The notes under the pieces were generated by a model. The model did not search any database. It saw nothing but the letters and a program-made list of their open reading frames with translations, and was not told the DNA's origin. Positions 7,608 through 43,029 of a stretch of DNA of 64,000 bases are shown piece after piece (position 1 is the first letter of the stretch; each line of letters starts with the position of its first letter). The stretch comes from Candidatus Lustribacter sp. (GTDB taxonomy: Bacteria > Vulcanimicrobiota > Vulcanimicrobiia > Vulcanimicrobiales > Vulcanimicrobiaceae): the NCBI GenBank assembly GCA_965277805.1, contig OZ255842.1:2336001-2400000 (forward strand). The letters are read 5' to 3'. The position numbers were made by a program, and so were the translations under genes.

Positions 7608-7693
7608 TTTCCGAATCGGGGGCTTATCGTTACGGAGACCGTCGCTACGACCATGAGGGACTGGCTATCAAACGATTTTCGATTGCCCTGCCG

Positions 7694-8650: not shown

Positions 8651-9954
8651 TCACGCAAGCCGAGAACGATCGTCTCACGCGCGTCGGACCGGGTACGCCG
8701 GCCGGAAATCTCATGCGCCGCTACTGGCACCCCGTTGCCGCCAAGGCGCAATTGCTCGAGCGCAACGTGATGCCGGTGCGTATCTTCGGTGAAGACCTCG
8801 TGCTTTTTCTCGACGGCCAAGGCCGTCCCGGGCTCGTCTCCGATCGCTGCGCGCACCGCCGCGTGAAACTCGAACACGGCTACACCAACGACGCCGGCAT
8901 CGTGTGTCCGTATCACGGCTGGACCTACAATGCCGGGGGCCGCTGCGTGGCGCAGCCCGGCGAGCCGCCGGAGAGCACGTTCAAAGATAAGATCACGATC
9001 GCGTCCTATCCGGTGCAAGAATTGGCCGGCCTGATGTTCGCCTATCTCGGGCCGCTGCCGGCGCCGCTCTTGCCGCGCTGGGACCGCCTCGTCTGGGACA
9101 ACGTCTATCGCGTGATCGGCTTCGTGAAGATTCCGTGCAACTGGCTGCAGTGCATGGAGAACACCCCCGATCCGGTGCACACCGAATATCTCCACGGCCA
9201 CTACTTCAAGCATCTGCTCGACAAGAGCAAGAGCACCGACGACCGCAGCCGCAAACTGGCCGAAGGCTTCACCACCCACTTCCTCAAGCATGACTACGCG
9301 ATCGGCAAGTACGGCGTCGATCGTCGCTGGCTGCTCGAAGGCCAATCGACCGACAAGGACACCTGGTCGAAGCCGCAGCCGCTCGTCTTTCCCGACATTC
9401 ACTGCACGTCGGGCGGCGGCCGCCACACCTTCGGCTGGCGCATGCCGATCGACGATGAAAACACGATGGAAGTGTACGTGCGTTCGTTCGATCCCGGTCC
9501 GGGCGTCACGGTGCCCGTTCAGGATCCGGTACCGTATCTCGAAGTCGAGATGGTCGATGAAAACGGGCGCTTCACGGCGTTGAATTCAGTCACCGGCCAA
9601 GACGTGATGGCGTGGGTCTCGCAGGGTACGGTTCTCGACCGTACCGAAGAGCGTCTCGGCGATACCGATCGCGGCGTGATCTTGTTCCGGCAATTGCTCA
9701 AGGCCCAAATCGACGCGGTCGAAGCGGGCCGCGATCCGATCAACGTCTTCCGCGATCCCGCCGAGAACCAATGCCTCGATCTCCCCGTGCCGTGGGATCG
9801 CGGTTATGCGTGGGGGTACGGCAAGGACGGCAGTTACGTTCGCGGTTCGATCACCGCCGCCGACCCGCTGCCCGAGCATCTCAAGAACGAGATCGAAGAC
9901 CTCTTCGTCCGCGCCGCTGAGAGCCGTCAGCGCCCCGCCTCAGCGATCGCCTAA
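8647..9954 (+). CDS. Rieske non-heme iron oxygenase alpha subunit (phthalate 4,5-dioxygenase/LigXa-like)
   Basis: CAHR...CPYHGW Rieske ligands; ENTPDPVHTEYLH and GQD mononuclear iron motif. Confidence 0.92.
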   Translation: MITQAENDRLTRVGPGTPAGNLMRRYWHPVAAKAQLLERNVMPVRIFGEDLVLFLDGQGRPGLVSDRCAHRRVKLEHGYTNDAGIVCPYHGWTYNAGGRCVAQPGEPPESTFKDKITIASYPVQELAGLMFAYLGPLPAPLLPRWDRLVWDNVYRVIGFVKIPCNWLQCMENTPDPVHTEYLHGHYFKHLLDKSKSTDDRSRKLAEGFTTHFLKHDYAIGKYGVDRRWLLEGQSTDKDTWSKPQPLVFPDIHCTSGGGRHTFGWRMPIDDENTMEVYVRSFDPGPGVTVPVQDPVPYLEVEMVDENGRFTALNSVTGQDVMAWVSQGTVLDRTEERLGDTDRGVILFRQLLKAQIDAVEAGRDPINVFRDPAENQCLDLPVPWDRGYAWGYGKDGSYVRGSITAADPLPEHLKNEIEDLFVRAAESRQRPASAIA

Positions 9955-9967
9955 AGGAGCTGCGTTC

Positions 9968-10792
9968 GTGTCCGAAGTGATTCAGGTTCGACAACCGGTT
10001 GGCAGGAAGAAGATTTTGCCACGACTTCGGCTACAGAACTCGACGGCGCGCGGGGTGCTCTCGATCATCGCCGCCGGCGTGATCTGGGAAATCGCCGGGC
10101 GCACGTTCCTGAGCAACCCGCTCTTCTTCGCCCCGCTCAGCGCGGTCATCGCGAAGATGCAGCAGCTTTGGGTGGCCGGCACGCTGCAGCAAGACATCCT
10201 GGTCAGCGCGCAAGAGTTCATCATCGGCTTCGTGCTCGCATCGATCGCCGGCATCGCGATCGGCGTGATCATGGCGAGCTCCAAAGCCATTTGCGACGTC
10301 ATCGATCCGTGGGTCTCGATGCTCTATGCCACGCCGTTCGTCGCGCTCGCGCCGCTGCTCACGTTGTGGCTCGGCATCGGCATGACGGCCCACATCGCTG
10401 TCGTCTTCATCGTCGTGATCTTTCCGGTGCTCATCAACACCCACGCGGGCCTGGCCAATAGCGACCGCGATCTGATCGAGGTCGCGCGATCGTACGGCGC
10501 CGATCAGCGTCAGATCTTCGTGAAAATCCGCTTCCCCGGCGCCTTGCCGTTCATCGTAGCCGGCCTGCGGCAAGGCATCGCGCGCGGGCTCACCGGCGTC
10601 GTCGTCGCCGAGCTGTTCGGGTCGCGCGCCGGTCTCGGCTACCTGATCCTGATCTCGGGCCAGCAATTCGATCCGGCCGGGCTGCTCGTCGGCATCTTGC
10701 TCTTCGCACTCGTCGGCGTCGGCGCCGTCGAGGCGGTTCGCATTCTCGAACGGCGCATCGCGCCGTGGCGCTTCTCGGAGGTCAGCGAATGA
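9968..10792 (+). CDS. ABC permease, SsuC/TauC-like
   Basis: EVARSYGA EAA-type loop and VVAELFGSRAGLG; AAGGAG RBS before GTG 9968. Confidence 0.9.
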   Translation: MSEVIQVRQPVGRKKILPRLRLQNSTARGVLSIIAAGVIWEIAGRTFLSNPLFFAPLSAVIAKMQQLWVAGTLQQDILVSAQEFIIGFVLASIAGIAIGVIMASSKAICDVIDPWVSMLYATPFVALAPLLTLWLGIGMTAHIAVVFIVVIFPVLINTHAGLANSDRDLIEVARSYGADQRQIFVKIRFPGALPFIVAGLRQGIARGLTGVVVAELFGSRAGLGYLILISGQQFDPAGLLVGILLFALVGVGAVEAVRILERRIAPWRFSEVSE

Positions 10793-11622
10793 CGTCGACG
10801 GTTGCACCGGCGCTGCCGAAGCTCTCGATCGAGCATCTCTCGAAGAGCTATCGCAAGGGCGATCAGTCGGTCGAAGCCCTGCGCGACGTGAGCATCGATA
10901 TCGCCGGCGGCGAGTTCGTCTCGATCGTCGGCGCGTCGGGCTGCGGCAAGACGACGCTGCTGCGTATGCTCGACGGCTTGATCGCGCCGAGTTCGGGCAG
11001 CATCGCGCTCGATCAGAAGCCGATCGACGGGCCGGGATACGGGCGCGCCTTCGTCTTTCAACAAGACCGTCTGCTGCCATGGCGCAACGTGCTCACCAAC
11101 GTCATGCTGGGCACGGAGATCCAAGGGCACAAGGCACCGGCCGATCGCGCGCGTGCGCTGCAGTTCATCGAACTGGTCGGTCTGAGCGGTTTCGAGAAGC
11201 ATTATCCGCACGAGCTCTCGGGCGGTATGCGTCAGCGCGTCAACCTGGCGCGCGCGCTCACCGCGGAACCCGAGGTACTGCTGCTCGACGAACCGTTCGC
11301 TTCGCTCGATGCGCAGACGCGCGAGATCATGCAAGCGGAGTTGCTGCGGGTCTGGCGCGAGACGCGCAAGACGGCGATCTTCGTCACGCACCAAATCGAC
11401 GAAGCCGTCTACCTCTCGGATCGCGTGGTGGTGCTCACCGTTCGTCCGGGGCGCATCAAGGAGATCGTGAAGATCGACCTGCCGCGCCCGCGCGAACTAT
11501 CGGTGAAGCGCACCCCGGCGTTCGTCGAATATACGAGCCACATCTGGCAGCTCATCGAGCAAGAGGTTCAGGAAAGCATCGGCCTCGAGAAGGCCGCCGC
11601 GGCGGCCCGGCACCTTACTTAG
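10789..11622 (+). CDS. ABC ATP-binding protein, SsuB/TauB-like
   Basis: GASGCGKT Walker A, LSGGMRQR signature, LLLDEPF Walker B. Confidence 0.95.
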   Translation: MTSTVAPALPKLSIEHLSKSYRKGDQSVEALRDVSIDIAGGEFVSIVGASGCGKTTLLRMLDGLIAPSSGSIALDQKPIDGPGYGRAFVFQQDRLLPWRNVLTNVMLGTEIQGHKAPADRARALQFIELVGLSGFEKHYPHELSGGMRQRVNLARALTAEPEVLLLDEPFASLDAQTREIMQAELLRVWRETRKTAIFVTHQIDEAVYLSDRVVVLTVRPGRIKEIVKIDLPRPRELSVKRTPAFVEYTSHIWQLIEQEVQESIGLEKAAAAARHLT

Positions 11623-12589
11623 AACACCACTCCGTGTCGACCAGCTTGGCCGAATCGCCCGGCTTGAGCGTGGTCAAGCGGTTTTGCTGCTGCAGGATCG
11701 ACACCAGCGTATCTAACCGCGACGGCACGGCGCACTTATCGGTGAGCACGTGCTTTTGCACCCAGTAGCTGTAGGCCGCTTCCGATTCTTCCTGGGTGCT
11801 GTTGGTCGCGGCGGCAAGGATATCGATCGCCTTCGCCTTGTTGGCCGGATTGTTGAGCCACGCGAGCGATTCGGCTTGGACTTTGAGGAACTTCCGCAGC
11901 GCGTCCGGGTGCTGCTGCGCCCAATCCTTGCGCACGGCGAGCAGGCTGAGCGCGAGGCTCGGCACGACGTCGGGCGTAAACGCGAGCGAGGTCATGCCGC
12001 GCGCCTTCAGCTTTTCATCTGCGGGCGATGAGAACAAACCCGCGTCGATCGCGCCTCCGAGCATCGCCGCTAAGCGCTGGCTCTGGCCGCCGCCGTACAC
12101 CCAATCGACGTCCTTTTCCGGATCGAGCCCGGCTTTCTTGAGGATGTTCTTGAGCACGGTCGTGTAGATCTCGATCGGCGACGCCGCACCGATGCGTTTC
12201 CCCTTGAGCTGCGCGATGGTTTTGATGCCCGGTGCGGCCATGAGGTTGTAAGGATTGCGATCGGCGACCGGTCCCACGGCGACGATGTTCGCGCCCTTGT
12301 CGACGCCGAGCACGAAGCCGGTTGAATCGATCGACACGACGTCGAGCGAGCCGCCGATCAATGCCGTGACGGTCGTCGGCGGATCGACGAGCGTCTGCTG
12401 CACGTCCAAGCCTTCGTTCTTGTAGAAGCCTTCGGCTTGGCCGACGAAGTACGCCCAATCGACCGGCGTCTGCGACATCGCGCCGCGCTTGACCACCGTC
12501 AGCGGCGCATCGGCAGCGCTCGCGGACACCAGCGATGCGGCAAACAAGAGCGCGAAGCCGGCAACGGCGGCACGGGCGATTTTCTTCAC
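11615..12589 (-). CDS. ABC substrate-binding protein, NMT1/SsuA-like
   Basis: Signal peptide; GFYKNEGLDV and QLKGKRIG; GTG start overlaps the upstream TGA. Confidence 0.85.
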   Translation of the reverse strand: MKKIARAAVAGFALLFAASLVSASAADAPLTVVKRGAMSQTPVDWAYFVGQAEGFYKNEGLDVQQTLVDPPTTVTALIGGSLDVVSIDSTGFVLGVDKGANIVAVGPVADRNPYNLMAAPGIKTIAQLKGKRIGAASPIEIYTTVLKNILKKAGLDPEKDVDWVYGGGQSQRLAAMLGGAIDAGLFSSPADEKLKARGMTSLAFTPDVVPSLALSLLAVRKDWAQQHPDALRKFLKVQAESLAWLNNPANKAKAIDILAAATNSTQEESEAAYSYWVQKHVLTDKCAVPSRLDTLVSILQQQNRLTTLKPGDSAKLVDTEWCSK

Positions 12590-13689
12590 GAGAACTCCTC
12601 AATGCGGAATCGTTCCGACGACCAGAACGGCCCGGTGTACCCGCACAGCCGGAAGATCGCCGTATGCGCGATGTCGCGCACGAACTTGATGTCGACTTGC
12701 GGACGGCCCGTCTCATAGCCCGGCGGTCCGAAGTAGCCGTGATCGAGCAGCTCGGTGCGAACCGCGGTGAGCCGGTCGAGGCCCGCTTCGTCGACGTTGA
12801 GCCGCAGCTCGGCGACCATGCCGGCAAAGTCCGCGCGATACGCATGTTCGGCGTTCGGAGCGCGGCGCTCGGCGAGATAATATGCGGTGGTCTGTACGGC
12901 GTCCATGAGCAAGCCGGCGGAAAGATGAATCTGTGCGACCACGTTCGATCCGGTGATCTGATCGAACACGACGTCAGCCGGAAAGCCGCCTTCGGCGAGG
13001 GGGACGACGCCTTCGCCGATCGCCGCGAACGCGCGCAACAGTACCGCGTCGTCGGCGGGAAACGGCGAATGCGGAAAGCGTCCGACCCGGCGGTAACCGC
13101 GGTAGTGCGTGGCCGAAAGCAGCTTGTCGCCCGCGGCGTACTGCTCGATCGCGATGATCGGCGTCGCGATGCCGGCGATCAACGAGATCACCATCTCGAG
13201 CCGATCACGTTCTTTCGGACTGAGCACGCCTTCGATCGCAACGGCCATGCGCAGGTCGTGATGGCTCGTCGCGTCGGGTGAATGACCTTGAAACACGACC
13301 GTACGGCCGGCAAAGCGGCTCACGCCGTTCCAGCTCGTACCGGAGAGAATCACGCGCGTTGAAGCGACCGGCAGACCGGCCGCACCGCCGTAGGAAAGGT
13401 GAAGTTCGGCACAGTTGAAGAGCCGCGCGCCGTTTGCCGACGTGCCGGTAAACGTGACGGGTGAACTGCGCCACGAACCGTCGGCGGCTTCGAGTTTACC
13501 GCCCGGCTCGCCGTACCGTTCTTCCGGAATCGCGAACGTGGAAATATCTTCGAAGCGCGCGCTGATCGAGCTGCTCGATACCGTCACCGATACGTTGCCG
13601 CGAGATTGTTCGCCCGACTTGGCCGTGTACACGGCTTCGCACGGAGCCGTTGTAAACGACTCCGTCGCGCCGCGTTCAGCGATCGACAT
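12586..13689 (-). CDS. Uncharacterised protein, putative ApeA/HEPN-fold derivative (paralog A)
   Basis: 367 aa; shares HHDxRMA, RVGxxPHSPF, IHxSA and PGYETGRPQxDIKFxRDIA with 20411-21529; abuts both neighbours. Confidence is for the CDS; the fold call is weaker. Confidence 0.8.
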   Translation of the reverse strand: MSIAERGATESFTTAPCEAVYTAKSGEQSRGNVSVTVSSSSISARFEDISTFAIPEERYGEPGGKLEAADGSWRSSPVTFTGTSANGARLFNCAELHLSYGGAAGLPVASTRVILSGTSWNGVSRFAGRTVVFQGHSPDATSHHDLRMAVAIEGVLSPKERDRLEMVISLIAGIATPIIAIEQYAAGDKLLSATHYRGYRRVGRFPHSPFPADDAVLLRAFAAIGEGVVPLAEGGFPADVVFDQITGSNVVAQIHLSAGLLMDAVQTTAYYLAERRAPNAEHAYRADFAGMVAELRLNVDEAGLDRLTAVRTELLDHGYFGPPGYETGRPQVDIKFVRDIAHTAIFRLCGYTGPFWSSERFRIEEFS

Positions 13690-14151
13690 CTAGCTGAAGA
13701 ATTTGCCGGGCAGCGGAATGACGGGCTGCTCTTTGTTCTCCACCGAATCGCCGGCGAACGGTTTGCCCTCGAGGTCGACGCGGTCGTCAAAGTTCGTCCA
13801 GCCCTCGCGCTTCGCGCCGACGCGCAGGAGCACCAGATTCTCATCGCCGCTGCTGAGGAACCAGTAGTAGCTGCCCGAGGGAATCATGATGCCGTCGTAC
13901 TTGCGCAGCACGCGAATCTCTTCGCTCTCACCAAGCCGGAACGTCGCCTCACCGGCGAGGATCACGAACATATGATCTTCTTGGCTGTGCGTGTGGATCG
14001 CGTTTTCACCGCCGGCCGCATAGACTTTCAAGTGGGCGGCCAAGAGATCGGTTTTGGCGAGCAAGTCCATCGTGCGGCCTTGCGCGAGCAACTGACCTTT
14101 CAGCGTGAACGGCTTTGCTTCCGGAGCGGCCTTTTGGGTTTGCGTGCTCAT
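13690..14151 (-). CDS. Cupin-domain protein
   Basis: GGENAIHTHSQEDHMFVILAGEA cupin motif 1; IPSGSYY. Confidence 0.85.
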   Translation of the reverse strand: MSTQTQKAAPEAKPFTLKGQLLAQGRTMDLLAKTDLLAAHLKVYAAGGENAIHTHSQEDHMFVILAGEATFRLGESEEIRVLRKYDGIMIPSGSYYWFLSSGDENLVLLRVGAKREGWTNFDDRVDLEGKPFAGDSVENKEQPVIPLPGKFFS

Positions 14152-14167
14152 CAATCGTCTCTTTCTG

Positions 14168-14890
14168 CTAGGCGGTAACGGCGGTGGGAGCGGCTCCCGA
14201 AGAGAGGAGCTTTCCGAGGCCGGACGTGGTGGGGTGCCCGATTTGGGCCAGCGACCACCACGCGGTGGCCTGGGTTTGTTCGATCACGGGGATGTTCTTT
14301 TCATCTTCGAGCACCCGCGAGATGCCGAGCATATTGCCGCGCGCAAAGATTACGACGCCGTCGCACTGCGGAAAGCGCGGCAGCGTTTCCCGCGCCAGCG
14401 CATCGTAGTCGGCCGCCGTCTTGGCGTTCACTTCATCTGCGTTGCGGCAGCCGAGCCCGACCGCCGCCTCGACGGCGAGGCCCACGTCGCGGCAAAACCC
14501 GACGATCTTGTCGTTCGACGGCTCGTCGTACTGCGTCACGAGCAGCGCATGACGCACGCCCAGATGCAGGCAGGCGAGCGCCGTCGCCGTGAGGCTCGAA
14601 ACGATCGGCACGCCGCGTTCGCGCGCGAGGCTTCCGAACAGCTCTTGCTCGGCCGCATAGCCGCGTCGCGCCGCATTCGGAATGCCCATGACCACGATGG
14701 CTTTCGCGCCCTCATCCGCGAGCACGTGCACCGCACCCGGAATCGCCGCGTTCGAACGCGCTTCTTCGCCCGGCTTGCCGTTGCGGTTGTTCAGCGTCGC
14801 AACGATTGCGGTCACGTCGGTGGGGAGCACCTCGTTGAGATCCGAGGGCAGTTGAACGACCGACGGCGAGATCGATCCAATTTTCGGCAT
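14168..14890 (-). CDS. Maleate isomerase/arylmalonate decarboxylase (Asp/Glu racemase fold)-like protein
   Basis: KIGSISPS, GVPIVSS, LGVRHALLVTQY and LEDEKNIPVI pattern; catalytic Cys not seen. Confidence 0.7.
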   Translation of the reverse strand: MPKIGSISPSVVQLPSDLNEVLPTDVTAIVATLNNRNGKPGEEARSNAAIPGAVHVLADEGAKAIVVMGIPNAARRGYAAEQELFGSLARERGVPIVSSLTATALACLHLGVRHALLVTQYDEPSNDKIVGFCRDVGLAVEAAVGLGCRNADEVNAKTAADYDALARETLPRFPQCDGVVIFARGNMLGISRVLEDEKNIPVIEQTQATAWWSLAQIGHPTTSGLGKLLSSGAAPTAVTA

Positions 14891-14893
14891 CGA

Positions 14894-16198
14894 TCAGGCT
14901 TCGACCAGCATGTTCTTCCGGCGCGCCGCCTCGACGTAGAGATCTTCGATTTCGTCCGCAACGTGTTCGGGCAAACGATCGGCGGCGGTAACCGAACCGC
15001 GAATGTACGAACCGTCCGCAGCGTAACCCCACGCATGACCGCGATCGAGCACGGTCGGCAGATCGATCTGCACGTTCTCAGCCGGATCGCGGAACACGTT
15101 GATCGGCGTCATGCCGGCTTCGACGCGTTCGATCTGATCGCGAATCAGCTGACGGTAGGCGATGATGCCGCGATCGGAATCACCGAGGCGCTCCTTGGTG
15201 CGGTCCATGATCTCGCCTTGCATCGTCCAGGCCATGAAGTCTTGACCGTTGACGGTGTCGAGCGAGAGAAAATTCCCCGTCTCGTCGCGGACCGGCATCT
15301 CGTAGTAGGGCACGACCTCTTGCTTGGGCACTTTCACGCCGTTGCCGGGCTGGAACGAACGCAGCACCACTTGCATCGTGTGGGTATCATCGATCGGCAC
15401 GCGCCAGCCGAAATCGTGGCGGCCCGAACCCGACGTCACGTGCGTGTTCGGGAAAACGAGCGGCGAGCTCGACGTCCACGTGTTCGCCGTTTCGCTTTGG
15501 CCTTCGATCAGCCAGCCGCGATGCAGGCCGTACTTGTGCATGCCGTACTCGTGCTTGATGATCGGTTTCTGAAAGCCCGATGCGAGCGCCCAGCGCGGAT
15601 CGCTCTTCGGAATCCCCTGTTCGCCGAGCCAGGTTTGAAAAAACTCGCCGTGCAGATAGATCGTGTGCATCGCATCGGGCGTGTTCTCCATGCACTGCAG
15701 CCAGTTGCACGGCACGATCGCATACGCGATGACGCGGTAGACGTCGTCCCACACGAGACGGTCCCAGTTCGGCAGCAGCGGTACCGGATCGGGCCCGATG
15801 TACGCAAACACGAGCCCGGCCAATTCCTGGACGTGATAGGCGCCGATTTGGACCTTGTCTTTGAACGTGCTGCCGGCGGGCTCGGCCGGTTGATCGACGC
15901 ATTGGCCGGTCGTATCGAACGTCCAGCCGTGATAGGGGCAACGGATGCCCGCGTCGTTCGTCCGCGCGCAGTCAAGCTTGACCTGACGGTGCGCGCAGCG
16001 ATCGTCGACCAGGCCCATACGATTCTTGCCATCGAGGAAGAGCACCATGTCTTGACCGTAGAGCCGGATCGGCATGACGCGGCGCTCGCGCAGCTGCTGC
16101 ATCGGCGCGACCGGCTGCCAATAGTGCCGGAAGAGCTTCCCGACCGGCGTCCCGGGGCCGACGCGGGTGAGGCGCTCGTTTTCTTCAGCGGTCAACAT
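14894..16198 (-). CDS. Rieske oxygenase alpha subunit, close paralog of 8647-9954
   Basis: CAHR...CPYHGW, ENTPDAMHTIYLH and GQD; AAGGAG RBS before ATG 16198. Confidence 0.92.
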   Translation of the reverse strand: MLTAEENERLTRVGPGTPVGKLFRHYWQPVAPMQQLRERRVMPIRLYGQDMVLFLDGKNRMGLVDDRCAHRQVKLDCARTNDAGIRCPYHGWTFDTTGQCVDQPAEPAGSTFKDKVQIGAYHVQELAGLVFAYIGPDPVPLLPNWDRLVWDDVYRVIAYAIVPCNWLQCMENTPDAMHTIYLHGEFFQTWLGEQGIPKSDPRWALASGFQKPIIKHEYGMHKYGLHRGWLIEGQSETANTWTSSSPLVFPNTHVTSGSGRHDFGWRVPIDDTHTMQVVLRSFQPGNGVKVPKQEVVPYYEMPVRDETGNFLSLDTVNGQDFMAWTMQGEIMDRTKERLGDSDRGIIAYRQLIRDQIERVEAGMTPINVFRDPAENVQIDLPTVLDRGHAWGYAADGSYIRGSVTAADRLPEHVADEIEDLYVEAARRKNMLVEA

Positions 16199-16229
16199 GT
16201 GGTGGGGCTCCTTCTGAAATACTTCTTTT

Positions 16230-16293
16230 AGAGTACGCCCCGGGCTGGACCCGTTCAATTCTTATACCGGCGGCATCCATTCCGTTACCTCAT
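16230..16293 (-). promoter_or_regulatory. Sigma70-type promoter (TTGAAC-N17-TACTCT) with an upstream LysR-type T-N11-A box
   Basis: -35 at 16253-16258 and -10 at 16230-16235 on the minus strand; ATTCCGTTACCTCAT at 16279-16293, centred near -63. Confidence 0.55.
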
Positions 16294-16344
16294 GTATCAA
16301 CGCAGCGCAAGGTCGCCGGTCCGGCCGCGGGAATTAGGCCGCCC

Positions 16345-17124
16345 ATGCCAGCCGTAGATGCCGCGAACGCCGCGCGCTTGATCGATCTCGTCACCGCCAG
16401 CCGGATCCTCGAAAACGAGGGCATCCTCGACAGCTACGGCCACGTCACCGTGCGTTCTGCCACGGATCCGGGACATTTTTTCATGCCGCGCGCCTTGCCG
16501 CCCGGCTCGATCACGGCCGGCGATTTGGTCGAACTCGATCTCGAGTGCACGCCGGTGCTGCCGAACGCGCCGCGTCTCAACGGCGAGCGGTTCATCCACT
16601 CCGAGATCTACAAAGCGCGGCCCGACGTGCAGTGCGTGATTCACTCGCACTCGGCGGCCGTAATCCCGTTCGCCGTGGCCGGCGTGCCGCTGCGTCCGGT
16701 GCTCGCACAAGGCGGCTTCTTGCCGCCCGAAACGCCGGTCTTTGAGATTCGCGAAGCGACGGGGACCGTGGCCTCGCGCGGCATGCTCGTGACGAACAGC
16801 GCGCTCGGCGCGTTTCTCGCAAAAAAACTCGGCGCAGCGCCCGCGATTCTGCTGCGCGGCCACGGTGATGCCGTCGTCGGCACGAGCGTGAAACAAGCCG
16901 TCGTGCGCGCGCTCTACGTATCGCTGAACGCGCGCGTGCAGTCGGAAGCGATGCGACTCAGCCCCACTATCACCGCGATGGACGACGCCGAACTCGAGTA
17001 TAATGCGAAAGAAAACTTCGACGTCGACCGCCCGTGGGCGAATTTCAAACGCCGCTTGACCGAAGGCTACTACGCTCGCGGCCGCGAGCTTCCGAAAGGC
17101 TTCGAGCTCGACCCGATTACCTAA
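16345..17124 (+). CDS. Class II aldolase/adducin-family protein (possible decarboxylase)
   Basis: YGHVTVR, ERFIHSEIYKARPDV, HSHS and LRGHG. Confidence 0.88.
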   Translation: MPAVDAANAARLIDLVTASRILENEGILDSYGHVTVRSATDPGHFFMPRALPPGSITAGDLVELDLECTPVLPNAPRLNGERFIHSEIYKARPDVQCVIHSHSAAVIPFAVAGVPLRPVLAQGGFLPPETPVFEIREATGTVASRGMLVTNSALGAFLAKKLGAAPAILLRGHGDAVVGTSVKQAVVRALYVSLNARVQSEAMRLSPTITAMDDAELEYNAKENFDVDRPWANFKRRLTEGYYARGRELPKGFELDPIT

Positions 17125-18176
17125 ACCGGCGAGAGCTCTTTCGCGGGCGCATCGAGCTTCATGAAGCGCTTGATGTTGCCGCTGAGGATCTTCTCTTTGT
17201 CTTCCCGCGAGAGCGCGATCGCCTCGAACAACTCTAGCGCGTAGTGCGAATCCCAGCACGGGTAATCCGTGCCGTACATCACGTGATCCACGCCGAAGTA
17301 TTCGATCGCAAACCGCATGCCCGCCGTGTGCGGCGAGACCATGTCGGTGTACATGCGCTTCAAGTACGTGCTCGGCAACTCCGGCAGCTTTGCGCCGGTG
17401 CCGTTCTTGTCGAGACGTCCCGCTTGATACGGCAGCGCACCGCCGGTGTGCGATACGACGACCTTCAAGTTCGGATAGCGTTCCATGATGCCCGAGAAGA
17501 TCAACCGCGACGTCGCAACGGTCGCCTCCATGATGCGGCCTACGCTGCGATGCAGCGCACCGCCGTAGCCGGCCAGCGGATCGGCGAAGAGCGCATCGGT
17601 CGGATGCATGAAGAGCGGGATGCCCAACTGTTCGCAGCGCGCATAGAACGGCTCGAGCCGCGGCGCGGCGATGTCCGGATCGTCGCCGATGCTGCCCGGA
17701 ATATTGACGCCGAGCAAGCCTAAACGACCGACGGCATCTTCGAGCACGTCGATTGCAACTTGGGTGTCGGTTAGCGGCACCGCCGCGGTGGCCCAAAAAC
17801 GCCCGGGGTGCGAACGCACCGCGCCGGCCATCTCTTCGTTCCACTGGATCGCCGCTTCTTTGCCTTCGGCGGCCGGCACATCGGAGAAGTGCACCGAGAA
17901 CGGCCCGATCGACCCGAGCGCCGAGACGTGATGCCCCAGCGTGTCCATGTACGTGAAATGCCCGTCCAGATCGTACCAAACCGCCGGCACCGCCAGCACA
18001 TACGTGCAGCCGGGCGCCCGATAGTAATTGAACCCGCCCTTACCGTCAGGCTCCGCCCGCGGATACCCCTTACGCTTGCACAGATCCTCAAAGATCGACC
18101 GCGGCCACCAATGAAAATGCGACTCAATAATGTCCACGGCCAAAACCTCCGGAACAAGCGCTGCCAGGTCTAGCAA
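17121..18176 (-). CDS. Amidohydrolase-2 family (ACMSD-like decarboxylase/hydratase)
   Basis: SHFH, FMHP, SHTGG and YGTDYP motifs. Confidence 0.88.
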   Translation of the reverse strand: MLDLAALVPEVLAVDIIESHFHWWPRSIFEDLCKRKGYPRAEPDGKGGFNYYRAPGCTYVLAVPAVWYDLDGHFTYMDTLGHHVSALGSIGPFSVHFSDVPAAEGKEAAIQWNEEMAGAVRSHPGRFWATAAVPLTDTQVAIDVLEDAVGRLGLLGVNIPGSIGDDPDIAAPRLEPFYARCEQLGIPLFMHPTDALFADPLAGYGGALHRSVGRIMEATVATSRLIFSGIMERYPNLKVVVSHTGGALPYQAGRLDKNGTGAKLPELPSTYLKRMYTDMVSPHTAGMRFAIEYFGVDHVMYGTDYPCWDSHYALELFEAIALSREDKEKILSGNIKRFMKLDAPAKELSPV

Positions 18177-18197
18177 GGTTCAAGCGCATCCCCCCTT

Positions 18198-18240
18198 TGT
18201 CATGCCGAGCGGAGCGCCGTAGGGCGCGGAGACGAGGTAC
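18198..18240 (+). repeat. REP-like palindromic repeat, copy 3
   Basis: TGTCATGCCGAGCGGA-GCGCC-GTA-G-GGCGC-GGAGACGAGGTAC, between co-oriented genes. Confidence 0.75.
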
Positions 18241-18293
18241 GCGCCATAATCATGACACCAGCCGGAGCAATGCCCCCAACGGAAGACCGCCAA

Positions 18294-19268
18294 CTACCGC
18301 GGGCACCACTCCGCATCGATATACTTATCCACATCCGCCGGCGTCGACTTCGTCTGCCCGGTATCATGCATCATCGCCAAATCCGCTTGCATCCCCGGCT
18401 TCATGACACAATAATTCGTCGGAAAATCCCGCACCTTGACGACGTACTCGTTATACGCATCGCCCGCCTCATACGCCGAAACGTTCGTGGCCTTCTCCAA
18501 AATCGCAAGCGCATCGGCCTTATTCGCCGGATCGGCCAGCCACCGGCTCGCCTCCGCCATCGCCTTCAAATATCCGCGCATCGCCGCCGGATTCTTCACG
18601 GCCCAATCCCGCCGCACCGCCGTAATACTCAACTGCAAATATTTATAATAATCCGGCGTGAACGCGAGCGCATGGAACCCGCTCTCCGCAAGTTTCGTAT
18701 CCTGCGGCGCCGCAAAGAGCCCAGCCTGAACCGCCCCGCCGGCCACTGCCGCATAGCGCTGATTCTGCCCGCCGCCGTACACGAGATCAACGTCCTTATC
18801 CGGATCGAGCCCGCCCTTGCGAATGATCTGCTTGATTACGAGCGTGTACAACTCGATCGGCGACACCGCGGCGACGTGCTTCCCCGCGAGATCCTTGACG
18901 GTTTTCACCGACCCCGGCACCATCAAGTGATACGGCATGCGGTCGGCGCCCGAGCCCGTCGCAACGACTCCCGCGCCCTTGTCGATTCCGAGGATCAGCT
19001 GCGTCGCCGGCGTGAGCGCAACATCAACGGATCCGCCGATGAGCGCCGGCACGATCGCGACCGGATCGAGCGCGATGAGTTGCACGTCCAGCCCTTCGCG
19101 TGCAAAGAAGCCGCGCGATTCGGCGATGAAGTGCGGCCAGTTCTGCGCCGTGATCGAGGGAGTGGCAAAGCGGATCACCGTCTTGGCCGGCGTGTCGGCC
19201 GATGCGCGCGCGCCGAGCAGGGCGATCGCAGCCGCAGCGATCGTCAGGACACGTCGAGCGCCGTTCAC
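18294..19268 (-). CDS. ABC substrate-binding protein, NMT1/SsuA-like
   Basis: GFFAREGLDV and KDLAGKHV; GTG 19268 overlaps the Rieske stop. Confidence 0.85.
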   Translation of the reverse strand: MNGARRVLTIAAAAIALLGARASADTPAKTVIRFATPSITAQNWPHFIAESRGFFAREGLDVQLIALDPVAIVPALIGGSVDVALTPATQLILGIDKGAGVVATGSGADRMPYHLMVPGSVKTVKDLAGKHVAAVSPIELYTLVIKQIIRKGGLDPDKDVDLVYGGGQNQRYAAVAGGAVQAGLFAAPQDTKLAESGFHALAFTPDYYKYLQLSITAVRRDWAVKNPAAMRGYLKAMAEASRWLADPANKADALAILEKATNVSAYEAGDAYNEYVVKVRDFPTNYCVMKPGMQADLAMMHDTGQTKSTPADVDKYIDAEWCPR

Positions 19269-20407
19269 TTGGGTTCGAGTTCGTCCGTCAAGTGGAATTG
19301 AGTCAGCGGTTTGCCCTCGGCCAAGGCCGCCAACTCGCGCCGCCAAAGCTTGCGGAAATGCGCCTCCGCGATGTCGGAGCTCCCCAAATGCTCGTCTTCG
19401 CGCGTCGAGACCGGCCCCTGCGCAACCTGAGCGACGTAATCCTCAACCGCTTCGATGTGCGTGCGATCCTTGATATCGCGCAGGCGCAACGTCCCCGCCA
19501 GCACCTGTTCGGCCAGCACCGGAATCACCGAGCGGTCGTAAAAACTCGCCGTACGCCCCGCAAGAATCTTCTCCGCCGCTTCACCCGTAACCGGAATCAG
19601 TGTGACGCGGTACGTCACGTGGCTCTCATCGTCGATCGGCACCCGGAACGAAACGTGCAGCGAATGTGCGACGCCCTTTGCCATGTTGATCGCCCGCGGC
19701 ACGATGTATCCGACGTTGGGCATGATCTTGTGCGCGACGTTTTCCTTGGCGTCGTTCGGCCAGCGCGAATACGCGGTATGCCCCCACGGCGTATCTTCAA
19801 CCCGCACTTCGGGCACACCGGTGATGCCCTTCTCCTCCATCAGGTCCCGATGGACGAAGCTGAAGTGCAGCGCGGAATTCTCGAGCGAGAAGAAATAGTT
19901 CGCCGGCATCACGTCGACCGTCACGTCGCGAATGCCATCCCGCTCCATCGCCTTGAAGCGCCACATCGGCGGCGGCTCGCCCTCGCCGAAATAGACGAAG
20001 ATCAAGCCCAGGTATTCTTCGGTCGGATATCCGTCGATGTTCAGCGCCGGCGTCGCGCGCGCTTTTTCCGACGGTCGCTCGATCACTTGACCCTTCGGAT
20101 CGAACACCCAGCCGTGATAGAAACAGCGGATGCAGCTGCCTTCGACAAAGCCGACGCTCAGTTGGGCTCCGCGATGCGAACAGCGGAAGCCGACCGCATG
20201 CGCGACGCCGTCTTCATCGCGGTAGAGCGTGAAGTCTTGGCTCATGATCTTCACGGGCTTGGCATCGCCCGTCTCGAGATCTTCCGAACGGTACACCGGC
20301 TGCCAGAAGGTGCGCATGTAACGCCCCGCGATCGTCCCGGGCGCGGTATGCACGAATGCGTTCTTGTGAACGCGGACTTCCTCGGTCGAGTGGAGCTCGA
20401 TAGCCAT
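19265..20407 (-). CDS. Rieske oxygenase alpha subunit with an atypical mononuclear-iron motif
   Basis: CSHR...CFYHGW; ENSALHFSFVH; VEDY. Confidence 0.88.
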   Translation of the reverse strand: MAIELHSTEEVRVHKNAFVHTAPGTIAGRYMRTFWQPVYRSEDLETGDAKPVKIMSQDFTLYRDEDGVAHAVGFRCSHRGAQLSVGFVEGSCIRCFYHGWVFDPKGQVIERPSEKARATPALNIDGYPTEEYLGLIFVYFGEGEPPPMWRFKAMERDGIRDVTVDVMPANYFFSLENSALHFSFVHRDLMEEKGITGVPEVRVEDTPWGHTAYSRWPNDAKENVAHKIMPNVGYIVPRAINMAKGVAHSLHVSFRVPIDDESHVTYRVTLIPVTGEAAEKILAGRTASFYDRSVIPVLAEQVLAGTLRLRDIKDRTHIEAVEDYVAQVAQGPVSTREDEHLGSSDIAEAHFRKLWRRELAALAEGKPLTQFHLTDELEPK

Positions 20408-20410
20408 TGG

Positions 20411-21529
20411 TTACGATTTCCCCGCAAGTTCGAGCGTGGTGACGTGTTCGGCGCCGTAATACGCGCCGCTGAAGCCGCATGATTTCAGGACAACCGCATC
20501 AGCGATATCGCGCAAGAACTTGATGTCCTTTTGCGGCCGCCCGGTTTCGTAGCCCGGATCGTGAAAGTACCCGCGTTCGAGCAGCTCTGCCCGCACGCGT
20601 TCGTAACGCTCGCGATCGTCCGGCGAGAGCCCGAAGTCGTAGCCGTGCGCGGCAGCGGTCACGTTTGCCAGCGCCAGCATCTGCGCGGACATGTGAATGT
20701 CGCGCACGTTGTACGAGCACACGATCAGGTCGACGACGCGCCGCAGCGGGAAGGCTCCTTCTTGGCTCGCGCGCAGCGCGCTTGCGAGCATCGCAAAGGC
20801 CTTCGCTTTCGTCTCAACCGCGACGCCGGTGAACGGGCTATGCGGCGACCAGCCGACCCGCGGCGTCCAGCGCCGGTGCTCGGTCTCGATGAGGCCTCCG
20901 GCGGCATCGTACCGCTCGACGCAGACAACGGCCGTCTCGACGCCCTCAACAAATCCAAGCGAACGGGCGATGTCCGCGATCTCGGAATGCGGGAGATTTC
21001 CGCTCGCAACCATCGCCATGCGCTTGTCGTGATGATTTGCAACGTCGTGCGTCAGCGCGTGCACGATCGCGTCGTTGCCGGCAACCCTCGCGGATCCCGA
21101 CCACGCAGCGCCGGCAAATACGATGCGCGTGAGGGCAATCGTCCCCTTCGCGCTGCGGTTCAGCAGCAGCGAACCGTCGAAGAGCACCTCGCCCGCCGTC
21201 TGCGGCAACCCGCCGTAGCCTTTGACCGCCTCCCAACGTCCGTCGAGCGAGCGGATACGTGCCGGACCGGCCGGCCGCTTCGCAAACGCCGCGTCATCCT
21301 TCGGCACGAAACGCACCGAGATCGACGTCGGCGAGAGCACGACCGATGCGTTGCCGGCCGTACTCCATACCGGCGTCGCACGGCTCTCCGGAGCGACGTT
21401 GTCCTCGCGCGTGAACGTCGTATCGACGGGCTTAGAGGTGAAAACCTCGAGTTGCGCTGCACCGTCCAAGGCAGCGCGTTCTTCGACCGCGCGACCCGCG
21501 ATGCCGGTAGAAACTACATCCTGTGACAC
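20411..21529 (-). CDS. Uncharacterised protein, putative ApeA/HEPN-fold derivative (paralog B)
   Basis: 372 aa; motif-level identity with 12586-13689; stop is 3 nt before the Rieske start. Confidence 0.8.
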   Translation of the reverse strand: MSQDVVSTGIAGRAVEERAALDGAAQLEVFTSKPVDTTFTREDNVAPESRATPVWSTAGNASVVLSPTSISVRFVPKDDAAFAKRPAGPARIRSLDGRWEAVKGYGGLPQTAGEVLFDGSLLLNRSAKGTIALTRIVFAGAAWSGSARVAGNDAIVHALTHDVANHHDKRMAMVASGNLPHSEIADIARSLGFVEGVETAVVCVERYDAAGGLIETEHRRWTPRVGWSPHSPFTGVAVETKAKAFAMLASALRASQEGAFPLRRVVDLIVCSYNVRDIHMSAQMLALANVTAAAHGYDFGLSPDDRERYERVRAELLERGYFHDPGYETGRPQKDIKFLRDIADAVVLKSCGFSGAYYGAEHVTTLELAGKS

Positions 21530-21553: not shown

Positions 21554-22549
21554 TCAGAGCGCCAGGGTCGCCGCCGCGAACAGCTCCTCGGCATCGACGC
21601 GCCGGCTCGTGATGTGCTGTTCGTGCAGGTAGCGCAGCAGCGTATCCAGTTCTTTGCGCGACCGGCGCACGCTGTATGGCCACGGATCGACCGCGACGGC
21701 ATCGCGCACGCTCTTCGCGACGATCCCGGCACCGACGTACGGGCCGAGCCCGTCGACCAAGCGTCGCAGCACGCGCTCCGTTGCGGCATTGAACGCATCG
21801 ACGATGTTCAACGCCGCCCACGGGTAACGCTCGAGCACCGAGCGGCGCACCACGACGGTATGGTTCACCGGATACATGCCGGTCGCCGCGTGATAACGGA
21901 TCGCTTCCGCTGCAACGTCCGGATAGAGCGTGCGCACGCGCGAATCGGCGTGCAAATCGGCGCGGCTGCGGTCGACCAGATTGCGCGCGGTGATGTAGTG
22001 AAAGAGCACGTCGAGTTCGCCGTCGAGCAGCATCCGGTCGAGGCTCTTGTCCGGCGCGAGAAACGAAAAGCGCAGATCCGCCGGTGGAACGAAACCGAGT
22101 GCGCCGCCGAGCGAGCGATCCGCCTCGCGTTCCATCACCCACGTCAGGTCGCTCGGCTGCACGCCGTATTCATCCGCGAGCACGCCCCGCGCCCACACCA
22201 CCGAGGTTTGAATGTAATCCGGCACGCCCGCGCGCATACCGCGCAGATCGGCCGGCGTTTGGATTCCGGCATCGGCCCGCACCAGCAACTGCGTGTGATA
22301 GAACCGGCGCAACGTGAATACCGGCAGGGCGACCCAATCGGATTTTCCGTCGGCCACGAGGCACGAGAGCGCCGAGAGTGACATCTCCGAGACGTCGAAC
22401 TCGCCGAACTCGAGTTGCCGCCAGAACATTTCGGCAGATTCCATCGGGCTTAGTCGCAGCGTGATGCCGGCAGGAGCAACGCTGCCGTCGAGCAGCGGCC
22501 GCGTCCGTTCGTTCACCGTGAACGCCGCCGAGAGCTCGATGTTGCTCAA
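21554..22549 (-). CDS. 4,5-dihydroxyphthalate decarboxylase-like protein (PhtD/OphC family)
   Basis: RTRPLLDG, EMFWRQL, EFDVSEMSLS, LPVF, GVPDY.QT..VWARG and YPVNHTVV. Confidence 0.8.
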   Translation of the reverse strand: MSNIELSAAFTVNERTRPLLDGSVAPAGITLRLSPMESAEMFWRQLEFGEFDVSEMSLSALSCLVADGKSDWVALPVFTLRRFYHTQLLVRADAGIQTPADLRGMRAGVPDYIQTSVVWARGVLADEYGVQPSDLTWVMEREADRSLGGALGFVPPADLRFSFLAPDKSLDRMLLDGELDVLFHYITARNLVDRSRADLHADSRVRTLYPDVAAEAIRYHAATGMYPVNHTVVVRRSVLERYPWAALNIVDAFNAATERVLRRLVDGLGPYVGAGIVAKSVRDAVAVDPWPYSVRRSRKELDTLLRYLHEQHITSRRVDAEELFAAATLAL

Positions 22550-23526
22550 CGTCCGGCGTCCCGCAGGTACGTCGCGTCGAAAACATCACCGATCGGCGGT
22601 ACGGTCGTGATCGCACCGGCCGCGCGAATGTCTTCACCCATCGCGAGAAAATCGCGGCTGAGGTTAACGCGGTCGTTGATGTCGAACACGTGCAGTTGGG
22701 TGAAGTCGAGGTCGTAGGCCTTCGCCGCCGTCGTCGCCGCGATGTTCGTGGCCGTCACGAGCGCCGCGACGGTTTCGGCCTTGTGCGTGTACCCGAACTG
22801 CACCGCGCGCTTGAGCGCCCGCACGAAATGCACCACAGCGGCGCGGTTCGCAGCCGCCCACTTCGTGTTCACGGCAAATGCGGTATCGGCCCACGGCGTC
22901 AACGTTTTGGCTCCGCTATCGAGCCGGTGGAAGCCCTTCTCTTCGGCCAGAATGTCGAACGGCTGCGAGAGCACGGTCGCCTGCACCGTGCCGGACATCA
23001 GCGCATCGAAGCGGGAGCTGCTGCTGGCCGAGGTGTAGACCGTGAAGTCGCTGCGCTGCAGCTGGTGCATCGCTGCCATTTTGAAGAACGAGAGCGAAGA
23101 GACGTCCTGCGGCGAGCCGAGCGTGACCGACTTTCCTTTCAGGTCGGGCCAACTATTTATACCCGCTGACACCAGCACCGTGTAGGGATTGGGACCAAAT
23201 TCAGGCGCCACGATCTTGATCGGTAACCCGTGCGCGACCGCGGCGATCTCGATGTCGCTCCCGTCGAGCCCGATGTTCGCATCGGACGTCGCAAGGACGT
23301 TGATCGTCGCCACGTTGCTCCCGCTTAGCACGGGCGTGACCTTCAGCCCCTCGTCGCTGAAGAAGTTCTGCGCGAGCGCGATGTACACGGGCCAATTACC
23401 GCTCCCCGGCGCGTTCATTGCCAGAGAAATGGGAACCGGCGTCTGCGTCTGCGCGTTCGCGCGTGCGACGAGCGATATCGTGCAGCATAGTGCAAGCGCG
23501 AACGAGCGAAATCCAAAGCGATCCAT
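22546..23526 (-). CDS. ABC substrate-binding protein, NMT1/SsuA-like
   Basis: Signal peptide; FFSDEGLKV and SWPDLKGKSV. Confidence 0.85.
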   Translation of the reverse strand: MDRFGFRSFALALCCTISLVARANAQTQTPVPISLAMNAPGSGNWPVYIALAQNFFSDEGLKVTPVLSGSNVATINVLATSDANIGLDGSDIEIAAVAHGLPIKIVAPEFGPNPYTVLVSAGINSWPDLKGKSVTLGSPQDVSSLSFFKMAAMHQLQRSDFTVYTSASSSSRFDALMSGTVQATVLSQPFDILAEEKGFHRLDSGAKTLTPWADTAFAVNTKWAAANRAAVVHFVRALKRAVQFGYTHKAETVAALVTATNIAATTAAKAYDLDFTQLHVFDINDRVNLSRDFLAMGEDIRAAGAITTVPPIGDVFDATYLRDAGR

Positions 23527-23561: not shown

Positions 23562-24437
23562 CTAGACGCGCTCCGCGTGCGGAACCGCGACGTCACGCTC
23601 CCACGTACGATGCTGCGGATCGCGCACGTCGACGCTGAACGATCCGACCTGCTCGATCTCGATCGTCAGTTGGTCGCCGTCCATGATCGGGCCCAGCCCT
23701 TCGTGATGGGTACCGGTGGCAATGACGTCGCCCGGTTCGAGCGGCACAACCGCGGAGGCGGCTTCGATCAACTTCTCGATCGAGTTTGCCATCTCGGTCG
23801 TACGGAAATCGTGCTTGAGATTGCCGTTGACCCACTGCCGGATACGGAGATCCATCGGATTCGGCACCATGTCGGCCGTAACGAGGCCCGGCCCCATCGG
23901 GCCGAACGTCGCGAACGACTTGTGAATGTAGAAGCCCGAGCTCAGACCGCGCGCCGAGAAATCGATGAAGGCCGTGTAGCCGAACACGTACCGCATCGCG
24001 CCGGCGGCCGGCACGTTGTCGGCGCGCGTGCCGATCACGACCGCGAGTTCGGGCTCCGCATGAAACTCTTTCGCCTGATGCGCCGGCAGCACGATCGTAT
24101 CGCCGGCGCCGATAACCGAACCGCGCGCCTTCAGGAAGAAGTCCGGCGGAGCGTTGTTCTCACCGCGCCGTTCGCGTTCGTAATCGCGGTAATTGCGCGC
24201 CGCACACAGCAGCTGATCGGATTCCGGAACCGGCGCCCGCAAGCGCACCTCCGTAACCGGCACGCCGCCGCCGCCCGCAACGAGCGCATCGATCCGGCCG
24301 CGCAGCCCTTCGGCACGTTCGATGAAACTGCGCACGATCGCGAGCGGGCTCGCGCCCTCGACCAGGGCACTGATGTCGTACACGCGGTCGTTGACGCGGA
24401 CGCCCGGCACGTAGTCACCGAAGAACACGAACTCCAT
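23562..24437 (-). CDS. Fumarylacetoacetate hydrolase family protein
   Basis: ARNY, FFLK, HAEPELAVVIG, DFSAR, KSFATFGPMGP and GDVIATGT. Confidence 0.9.
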   Translation of the reverse strand: MEFVFFGDYVPGVRVNDRVYDISALVEGASPLAIVRSFIERAEGLRGRIDALVAGGGGVPVTEVRLRAPVPESDQLLCAARNYRDYERERRGENNAPPDFFLKARGSVIGAGDTIVLPAHQAKEFHAEPELAVVIGTRADNVPAAGAMRYVFGYTAFIDFSARGLSSGFYIHKSFATFGPMGPGLVTADMVPNPMDLRIRQWVNGNLKHDFRTTEMANSIEKLIEAASAVVPLEPGDVIATGTHHEGLGPIMDGDQLTIEIEQVGSFSVDVRDPQHRTWERDVAVPHAERV

Positions 24438-31066: not shown

Positions 31067-31074
31067 CGTGCCCT

Positions 31075-33464: not shown

Positions 33465-33482
33465 TTCGAAATGGGGAATCAC

Positions 33483-42874: not shown

Positions 42875-43029
42875 GGAAAATCCCCCGGCGACGGCGCTAA
42901 AAGCCATTAAGCACCTTAATCAGTTAGCATCTGCACTATAATTGGAAACGAGCTCCACGTCAACGGGGTGGGCCGCAAAAAAAGAAATGCGTTTTCGCTG
43001 GGCCTACGGGCACCCCGCTCCGGCGCGGG

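Follow-up and report, generated by a model that had tools for sequence, protein, structure and literature searches.

Two putative ApeA-like HEPN-type paralogs without the RNase histidine in Rieske oxygenase operons of Candidatus Lustribacter

Canonical phthalate operons encode an oxygenase, a reductase, a cis-diol dehydrogenase and a decarboxylase, and HEPN proteins are also found in catabolic operons. One example is MtlR, a small HEPN-only protein without a beta-rich N-terminal domain. As the HEPN-fold repressor of the mannitol operon, MtlR is described as a member of a HEPN family that largely lacks the ribonuclease (RNase) motif (PMC3710099). ApeA, a single-gene anti-phage tRNase (PF18862 plus PF18739), is described by Anantharaman et al. 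(PMC3710099) as a mostly-beta N-terminal domain followed by a HEPN domain. The ApeA proteins of E. coli are reported to be mostly helical, to form rings of dimers, to cut tRNA and to have, at a distance from the active site, a pocket for a ligand where the N-domain meets HEPN (10.64898/2026.01.26.701840). ApeA itself is thus heterogeneous, because the E. coli proteins are described with another N-domain. Here we analyze a 64 kb stretch of Candidatus Lustribacter sp. (assembly GCA_965277805.1, contig OZ255842.1, positions 2,336,001 to 2,400,000), which we call the window. It encodes two proteins, X-A and X-B, of an unannotated family that we name X; the genomic loci with which it was compared carry L-numbers. 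The initial annotation of the window had proposed that a defence-type fold was repurposed here in aromatic catabolism. Our results suggest that this is largely right in kind: X appears to be a defence-type ApeA/HEPN scaffold that lost its catalytic His and was exapted into aromatic catabolism. Read from sequence, the case consists of a homology chain to the ApeA-like HEPN lineage, the loss of the His, a set of new motifs and membership in catabolic operons.

X-A and X-B align end to end by BLASTP (E 3e-52, 33% identity over 371 columns), a similarity far above chance. All of the motifs that had been listed as common to the two proteins were present in this alignment. They comprise GNxSVxxSxxSISxRF, DGxW, TRxxxxGxxWxGxxRxAG, HHDxRMA and a His before RVGxxPHSPF, followed by FPxxxVxDxI, IHxSA, VRxELL(D/E)xGYF, PGYETGRPQxDIKFxRDIA and CG(Y/F)xG. 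These two are the only X copies in the source genome (a single contig of 5.53 Mb), and the loci of their nearest relatives are 98% and 89% identical to the window locus. In the tree, X-A falls in a clade of 13 and X-B groups with P0082, P0079 and P0078; we read the two as old paralogs, not a recent duplication.

The gene junctions, read from the sequence, are as first described. The TAG stop of the cupin gene directly abuts the ATG of X-A, the stop of X-A overlaps the GTG start of a substrate-binding protein (SBP) gene as GTGA, and the TAA stop of X-B is followed after 3 nucleotides (cca) by the ATG of Rieske B. The gap between the PhtD-like gene and X-B is 24 nucleotides. Translational coupling is visible at these junctions. 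The G+C content at third codon positions (GC3) is 0.76-0.77 for the X genes and 0.79-0.83 for their neighbours, and the codon usage of X is native to its surroundings.

We compared 26 loci, in which six-frame open reading frames (ORFs) were labelled by BLASTP against annotated references. Loci that proved identical (L046 and L004, L053 and L009, L052 and L051) were counted once, and 10 loci were too short upstream to judge. A phthalate dioxygenase (PDO)-like Rieske gene and an arylmalonate-decarboxylase-like (Amdase-like) gene lie upstream of X in all 14 distinct loci with enough upstream flank. A class II aldolase-family (aldolase-II) gene is present in 13 distinct loci; it directly follows X in 7 and directly precedes it in 1, making 8 distinct loci with immediate adjacency (L008, L009/L053, L051/L052, L054, L055, L056, L059 and L058). 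Genes of an ATP-binding cassette (ABC) importer, namely an NMT1-type SBP, a permease and an ATPase, flank X in most loci, and an M24 hydrolase gene lies divergently beside the operon in 6. The copy-B order (PhtD-like, X, Rieske, SBP) was seen again at L004/L046 and, as separate pieces, at L061. In the compact operons of L008, L053 and L056, the genes for SBP, Rieske, Amdase-like protein, permease, ATPase, X and aldolase-II leave no room for another enzyme gene.

The placement of X in catabolic operons was found in both Eremiobacterota and Alphaproteobacteria. The earlier argument that two independent operon placements exceed chance was understated, since every locus with sufficient flank showed this placement. 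Of the neighbours proposed for homologs, Rieske genes were present in all informative loci, importer genes in most and PhtD-like genes in the copy-B arrangement. All X loci proved to be catabolic operons rather than defence islands or random contexts, and no variable defence neighbours were seen at any X locus compared. X operons resemble canonical phthalate operons in having a PDO-like oxygenase, a PhtD-like or PhtC/Mlr6791-like decarboxylase and an importer. They differ in that no gene for a cis-diol-type dehydrogenase or a reductase was found among the window ORFs scanned or in the compared X operons, which instead contain X, the Amdase-like protein and often the M24 hydrolase.

Two of the compared loci showed irregularities around X-B. 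In a metagenome-assembled genome (MAG) 98% identical to the window (L003:1438-3411), the SBP and PhtD-like genes are broken into pieces in several frames, and the stretch from the PhtD-like to the Amidohydro_2 gene lacks the genes for X-B, Rieske B and the SBP, which represents either a deletion or a long-read assembly error. On a short metagenome contig (L061:327-1418), an X-B-like gene with PhtD-like and Rieske fragments on either side is broken into several frames, which marks either a pseudogene or a sequencing error. We also considered P0070 (632 residues, X plus Aldolase_II) as a real fusion, and rejected it: the tail after 'RLCG' looks out-of-frame and reads on into the Met of the following gene. 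P0070 is probably a frameshift read-through or an assembly artefact, not a Rosetta stone. A predicted complex of the window aldolase-II with X-A, run without controls, scored 0.00, which speaks neither for nor against binding.

The relatives of X gave the clearest view of what changed in the family. A HMMER profile search of 1.84 billion representatives returned 52 proteins at E<=0.001, 20 of them at E<=1e-30, and the same search contained a sister group of unannotated proteins of about 450-470 residues (P0094 and others), which we call the long clade. At exactly the position where X has RxELL[DE]xG[YF]F, the long clade has R[DN]E[LI]LHNGYF, and thus an intact R-x4-H. We built a tree from 97 proteins of at least 330 residues (80 X and 17 long clade), with fragments and P0070 left out, and the split between X and the long clade had 100% support in the Shimodaira-Hasegawa-like approximate likelihood ratio test (SH-aLRT). 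All 17 long-clade rows have the motif His, versus none of the 80 X rows (77 Asp or Glu, 2 Arg, 1 Gly), and so do 21 of 21 long-clade proteins in a separate alignment. The initial annotation had noted Asp or Glu at the His position of the two window proteins, and this proved correct for both (R311-x4-D316 in X-A, R-x4-E in X-B) and for the family at large. Three further long-clade residues, H266 (18/21), E270 (17/21) and R274 (15/21), which lie in the preceding helix, are not kept in X.

New residues became fixed in X. Conservation was measured on 33 family members at 34-40% overall identity, in which H144, R147, R197, R201, H207, P209, F210, E313 and the block P323-D339 are invariant. Gained in X, and invariant or nearly so, are HHD (143-145), R147, R200/R201, H207 and the loop-helix block P-G-Y-E-T-G-R-P-Q-x-D-I-K-F-x-R-D; HHD and PGYETGRPQ are missing from the long clade. 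Five His had been counted as shared by X-A and X-B; in the 33 members, two of them (H144 and H207) are invariant, two more (H143 and H195) are at least 90% conserved, and the fifth, H255, is not conserved. Two basal members of the X clade, P0084 and P0087, have R-x-E-L-L-R-R-G-Y-F and lack the motif His, HHD and PGYETGRPQ; by their sequences they resemble a transitional state on the way from the long clade to X.

The long clade also connects X with ApeA. X and the long clade match over both domains in hhalign (probability 100%, E 7.5e-45, 370 columns); they share the N-domain, and their helices are in register. The long clade in turn matches 26 true ApeA proteins, defined by PF18862 plus PF18739, with a probability of 78.7% (E 1.7e-5, 222 columns), in a register that places RNELLHNGY on TRNYYTHY and AIEAWNR on QAIEAYHRR. 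We then compared predicted structures. The AlphaFold2 model of X, built from the 33-sequence alignment, has a predicted local distance difference test (pLDDT) score of 92.4 and a predicted template modelling (pTM) score of 0.89. By DSSP it consists of beta strands in 17-153, a helix at 158-172, a hairpin at 178-196, helices in 214-349 and two terminal strands, that is, a mostly-beta N-terminal domain and then a helical HEPN-type domain. A model of a true ApeA protein (pLDDT 83.8) has a beta-rich N-domain at 4-195, a helix at 197-215, a hairpin at 221-240 and a helical domain at 263-477, the same order of elements as in the X model. Of the top-50 PDB entries of the true ApeA model in VIA-align, 19 are also in the top 50 of X. 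In an ESM Atlas feature search with X, the first matches scored 0.97 and 15 of 30 matches were clusters carrying ApeA_NTD1/HEPN_Apea. X differs from ApeA in being about 100 residues shorter in the HEPN inserts and in sitting in a catabolic operon, not in a defence or restriction-modification neighbourhood.

VIA-align against 48,161 chains supported a HEPN fold in the C-terminal domain of the model. In seven of the eight best rows, X residues 229-353 align with a HEPN domain or with the HEPN-like substrate-binding partner of a nucleotidyltransferase: Csm6 (8jbc, Z 8.9), HI0074 (1jog, 8.7), HepT (7ae2, 8.7), 8xdj (8.6), 1wwp (8.3) and, at 7.8 each, 4nqf and 2hsb. The eighth is AbiA (8oz7, Z 8.1), aligned over residues 170-348. 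The HEPN matches in these rows have Z values of 7.8-8.9 over 107-117 aligned residues, and lower rows include the sacsin HEPN, AbiV and Las1. The model of a true ApeA protein retrieved this set as well. HepT (7ae2/5yep), HI0074 (1jog) and Csm6 (8jbc) are the best structural matches of X residues 230-352 (Z 7.2-8.9, 107-115 residues aligned); these toxins and substrate-binding domains are 4-10% identical to X, which has extra domains and lacks the catalytic His. The N-domain of X matches generic small barrels (PilZ, split-barrel) at Z 6-7.7. Its split-barrel flavin-reductase matches (Z 6-7) had suggested flavin binding, a claim that we dropped because the true ApeA N-domain matches the same generic barrels (PilZ, PNPOx-like, Hcp).

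The genomic context of the long clade is opposite to that of X. A combined profile matched 16 of 301 genomes of the phylum, all in the family of the window organism; this tally includes G276, which is flagged unpublished and on which no other claim rests. Full-length long-clade genes occur in 6 of the 16 genomes, at seven loci, L038-L044 (G136, G053, G226, G091, G061 and G099), for example at L038:8327-9766. The neighbours at L038 are relaxase, HNH, AbiEii/AbiEi, Abi_C and ResIII genes, those at L041 include a Cas1-like gene, and those at L042 are Mu-transposase/TniB (Tn7-like) and KAP NTPase genes. At L039 the gene is part of an insertion inside purine-catabolism genes, and at L040, L043 and L044 the neighbours are unannotated or mixed. 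Mobile or defence neighbours are clear in 3 of the 7 loci. The GC3 of long-clade genes is 0.60-0.65, compared with 0.8-0.9 around them. No Pfam or PADLOC model matched the long clade, which is a candidate new ApeA-like single-gene defence family. The tree, the sister-clade profile link and the opposite contexts of the two clades together support the proposed repurposing of a defence-type fold.

X is a rare family. When 5.8 billion proteins were searched by a word index, 73 clusters were returned, every one of them 'hypothetical', and a pattern scan of one genome per species for 185,579 species gave 9 X loci, hosted by Eremiobacterota MAGs, Rhizobiales/Hyphomicrobiales MAGs, Stellaceae MAGs and the cultured Novosphingobium flavum NBRC 111647 (L010). 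Among 27 relatives scanned with Pfam, only P0099 matched HEPN_Apea, at E 0.077, below the cut-off. PDB sequence searches with X, the X profile, the sister-clade profile and the ApeA profile returned nothing useful. A confident match to an already characterized enzyme family did not appear in the Pfam, NCBIfam, PADLOC or PDB sequence searches. A dedicated search for longer, fused relatives found none, which is itself weak evidence, and a limited literature search found neither a published account of HEPN/ApeA-like genes within oxygenase operons nor one of the Rieske/Amdase-like/aldolase-II module. Two sets of 301 genomes were also screened; in both, the centre genome alone carried X, and it alone carried the Amdase-like ortholog (E<=1e-30). 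Both same-genus genomes lack X as well as the Amdase-like ortholog, and no X-less module was seen among 600 other genomes.

The ApeA-like architecture first claimed for X-A and X-B is upheld by the HEPN fold matches, the transitive profiles, the element order of the ApeA model and the ESM Atlas clusters, but not by the Pfam ApeA and HEPN models or by direct profile comparison, and several results weigh against our reading of X. Scans of X-A and X-B at E up to 10 gave no match to any model of Pfam, NCBIfam or PADLOC, the ApeA models PF18862 and PF18739 among them, and direct hhalign comparison of X with true ApeA proteins gave a probability of 0.1% and nothing significant. Because of these two results, membership of X in the ApeA group rests on the intermediate clade, and the link depends on that clade and on moderate scores; when X and the long clade were merged, the probability of the match to ApeA fell to 52.9% (E 1.4e-4, 223 columns). 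The N-domains were not aligned by hhalign in the ApeA comparisons, and their likeness is one of architecture only. With the X model, Foldseek found nothing in the PDB at an E-value of 0.001 or below. Z values up to 8.9 are too low to be safe alone for a helical bundle, and for this reason the HEPN assignment rests also on the hhalign comparisons. With respect to function, 77 of 80 X proteins retain the motif Arg, and it is replaced in the other 3. HEPN families with Asp in place of His and another His elsewhere are suggested in PMC3710099 to be still active, so that a residual or alternative nuclease activity in X is conceivable. The shared phyletic pattern of X and the Amdase-like gene is weak evidence because the sample centres were chosen for having X, and the sole apparent fusion, P0070, gives no evidence of physical coupling. 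The catalytic role, ligand and partners proposed for X below, like the metal binding first suggested, are all putative.

As our best guess, with a probability of roughly 0.45, we propose that X is a non-nuclease pathway enzyme, or enzyme subunit, that acts on a small molecule after the oxygenase. A small X clade would have split from ApeA-like anti-phage proteins with a HEPN domain; the RNase centre of that domain would have been lost and new invariant motifs acquired. The clade would then have become a fixed, vertically co-inherited part of a catabolic module for a phthalate-like substrate (an aromatic or pyridine o-dicarboxylate). Such a protein would no longer cut RNA, and its old ligand pocket, or a remodelled cleft with HHD, H207-S-P-F, many Arg and P-G-Y-E-T-G-R-P-Q, may bind a carboxylated pathway intermediate. 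The place of X in the pathway would be after the Rieske oxygenase and before the decarboxylase, either as an enzyme or as a subunit that confers specificity; we assign it this slot because the operons encode no cis-dihydrodiol dehydrogenase. A narrower version, which we consider improbable, makes X a cofactor-independent enzyme for the oxygenase product (e.g. dihydrodiol to hydroxy-o-dicarboxylate) that replaces the cis-diol dehydrogenase dependent on nicotinamide adenine dinucleotide (NAD); its product would feed the PhtD-like or PhtC/Mlr6791-like decarboxylase.

Three other roles were considered. X might be a non-catalytic HEPN-type regulator like MtlR, which would sense a metabolite of the pathway through an ApeA-type pocket and would regulate expression or activity by binding protein or RNA without cutting. 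The precedent is a motif-less HEPN family regulating from inside a catabolic operon (PMC3710099), and ApeA is described as ligand-switched through the pocket between its N-domain and HEPN (10.64898/2026.01.26.701840). The retention of the motif Arg and of many other Arg in X, and the fact that each paralog accompanies its own oxygenase/decarboxylase set, would also suit a regulator. However, LysR regulators already flank the modules, X lies amid enzyme and transporter genes with start/stop overlaps, and a 17-residue block invariant across two phyla looks more like an active site. Pfam gave no MtlR match in X, and MtlR belongs to a sugar phosphotransferase system (PTS) operon, not to an oxygenase operon; the resemblance appears to be a likeness in kind, not homology. 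We regard a regulatory role as unlikely.

X could instead be a non-catalytic structural partner of the Rieske oxygenase or the decarboxylase, serving as a scaffold, stabilizer or specificity subunit. Its constant link with the PDO-like Rieske gene, its frequent adjacency to aldolase-II and the pairing of the two paralogs with two different oxygenases point in this direction. Yet the entries for solved phthalate dioxygenases of this kind list a single oxygenase chain, and these enzymes are not known to need extra subunits; moreover, the contact-suggesting fusion P0070 is an artefact, and the invariant polar residues would be left unexplained. ApeA relatives do form large oligomers (10.64898/2026.01.26.701840), but overall we think this role rather doubtful. 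Finally, X could still be a defence or addiction nuclease that uses an alternative catalytic set (e.g. HHD plus the kept Arg) and is carried by a mobile catabolic island. Its ancestry lies in a clade from defence and mobile contexts, its module is rare and patchy across phyla and absent from both same-genus genomes, and alternative active sites are described for HEPN families (PMC3710099). Against this speak its constant place in the operon, codon usage native to its surroundings and the coupling of its translation to that of catabolic genes. The lack of variable defence neighbours at the X loci, the lack of a PADLOC match in X and the replacement of the motif Arg itself in some X proteins point the same way. 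A nuclease role seems very improbable, and we prefer to read X as an enzyme, or as a subunit of one, with a small molecule as its substrate.

Defence proteins are usually regarded as a closed world of fast-evolving toxins. The whole X clade appears to have left this world, having lost the His, gained new motifs, taken on native codon usage and become bound to operons in two phyla. Should X prove to be an enzyme or an essential subunit, it would name a missing step of a widespread type of degradation of aromatic or pyridine dicarboxylates in peat and soil bacteria, and an enzyme would be a new catalytic use of the HEPN scaffold. If the dihydrodiol version is true, X would be the first small-molecule catabolic enzyme built on an HEPN/ApeA scaffold. 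If X is a ligand-switched regulator, the ApeA sensor pocket would have been re-tuned from phage-derived nucleotides to a metabolite. The cultured carrier Novosphingobium flavum opens the question to bench testing.

The genes around X-A and X-B are collected in Table 1. The identities first given to the neighbours (Rieske, racemase-fold, cupin, SBP and PhtD-like) were confirmed by Pfam and PDB matches. The best NCBIfam match of the window aldolase-II was the 3,4-dihydroxyphthalate decarboxylase PhtC, below the cut-off; its best PDB match, Mlr6791, is the hydroxy-methylpyridine-dicarboxylate decarboxylase.

Table 1. Positions of X-A, X-B and other genes in the window
Feature	Position	Strand	Remark
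SBP gene, NMT1/SsuA-type	3255-4217
Divergent unit: LysR, NMT1 SBP, third PDO-like Rieske, ABC permease, ABC ATPase	6597..11622	+	importer shared with X-A operon
SBP gene, NMT1/SsuA-type	7694-8650
Permease/ATPase pair	9806-11622
SBP, NMT1/SsuA-type	11615..12589	-
X-A, putative ApeA-like protein	12586..13689	-	367 residues, ATG start
Small cupin (Cupin_2)	13690..14154	-
Amdase-like protein, Asp/Glu racemase fold	14168..14890	-	Amdase/Asp_Glu_race match
Rieske oxygenase A, phthalate-dioxygenase-like	14894..16258	-	Pfam; best PDB match 7fjl, E 6e-52
Class II aldolase-family protein	16345..17124	+	best PDB match Mlr6791 (2z7b, E 2.5e-43)
Amidohydro_2 family protein	17121..18176	-	Pfam
NMT1-type SBP downstream of Rieske B	18294..19346	-	Pfam
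Rieske oxygenase B	19265..20407	-	best PDB match phthalate dioxygenase 7fjl, E 2.5e-24
X-B, old paralog of X-A	20411..21529	-	372 residues, GTG start; RAELLE replacing R-x4-H
4,5-dihydroxyphthalate-decarboxylase-like (PhtD-like)	21554..22549	-	9jp7, E 1.8e-45, full length
NMT1-type SBP	22546..23526	-	Pfam
Fumarylacetoacetate-hydrolase family protein	23562..24437	-	
Amidohydro_2 family protein	24443..25672	-	Pfam
Oxalyl-CoA-decarboxylase-like thiamine diphosphate (ThDP) enzyme + formyl-CoA transferase	29426-32304	-
SBP gene, NMT1/SsuA-type	32499-34424
Fused PcaDC	38015-39136	-
p-Hydroxycinnamoyl-CoA hydratase/lyase	42053-42907	-	above NCBIfam cut-off
Fourth Rieske oxygenase, full-length LigXa-type	47199-48539	+	LigXa_C, E 4.6e-72
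SBP gene, NMT1/SsuA-type	51273-52211

The 64 kb hold at least eight genes for SBPs of the NMT1/SsuA type and a single permease/ATPase pair, which suggests that many binding proteins share one importer in the window. The fourth Rieske oxygenase, unlike the three PDO-like ones, is of the LigXa type and adjoins genes for a periplasmic binding protein, a MarR protein and a major facilitator superfamily (MFS) transporter. The window also encodes the ThDP enzyme with its formyl-CoA transferase, the fused PcaDC and the p-hydroxycinnamoyl-CoA hydratase/lyase listed in Table 1. The window is a lignin-aromatic catabolic island, of which the X module is a part that both same-genus genomes lack.

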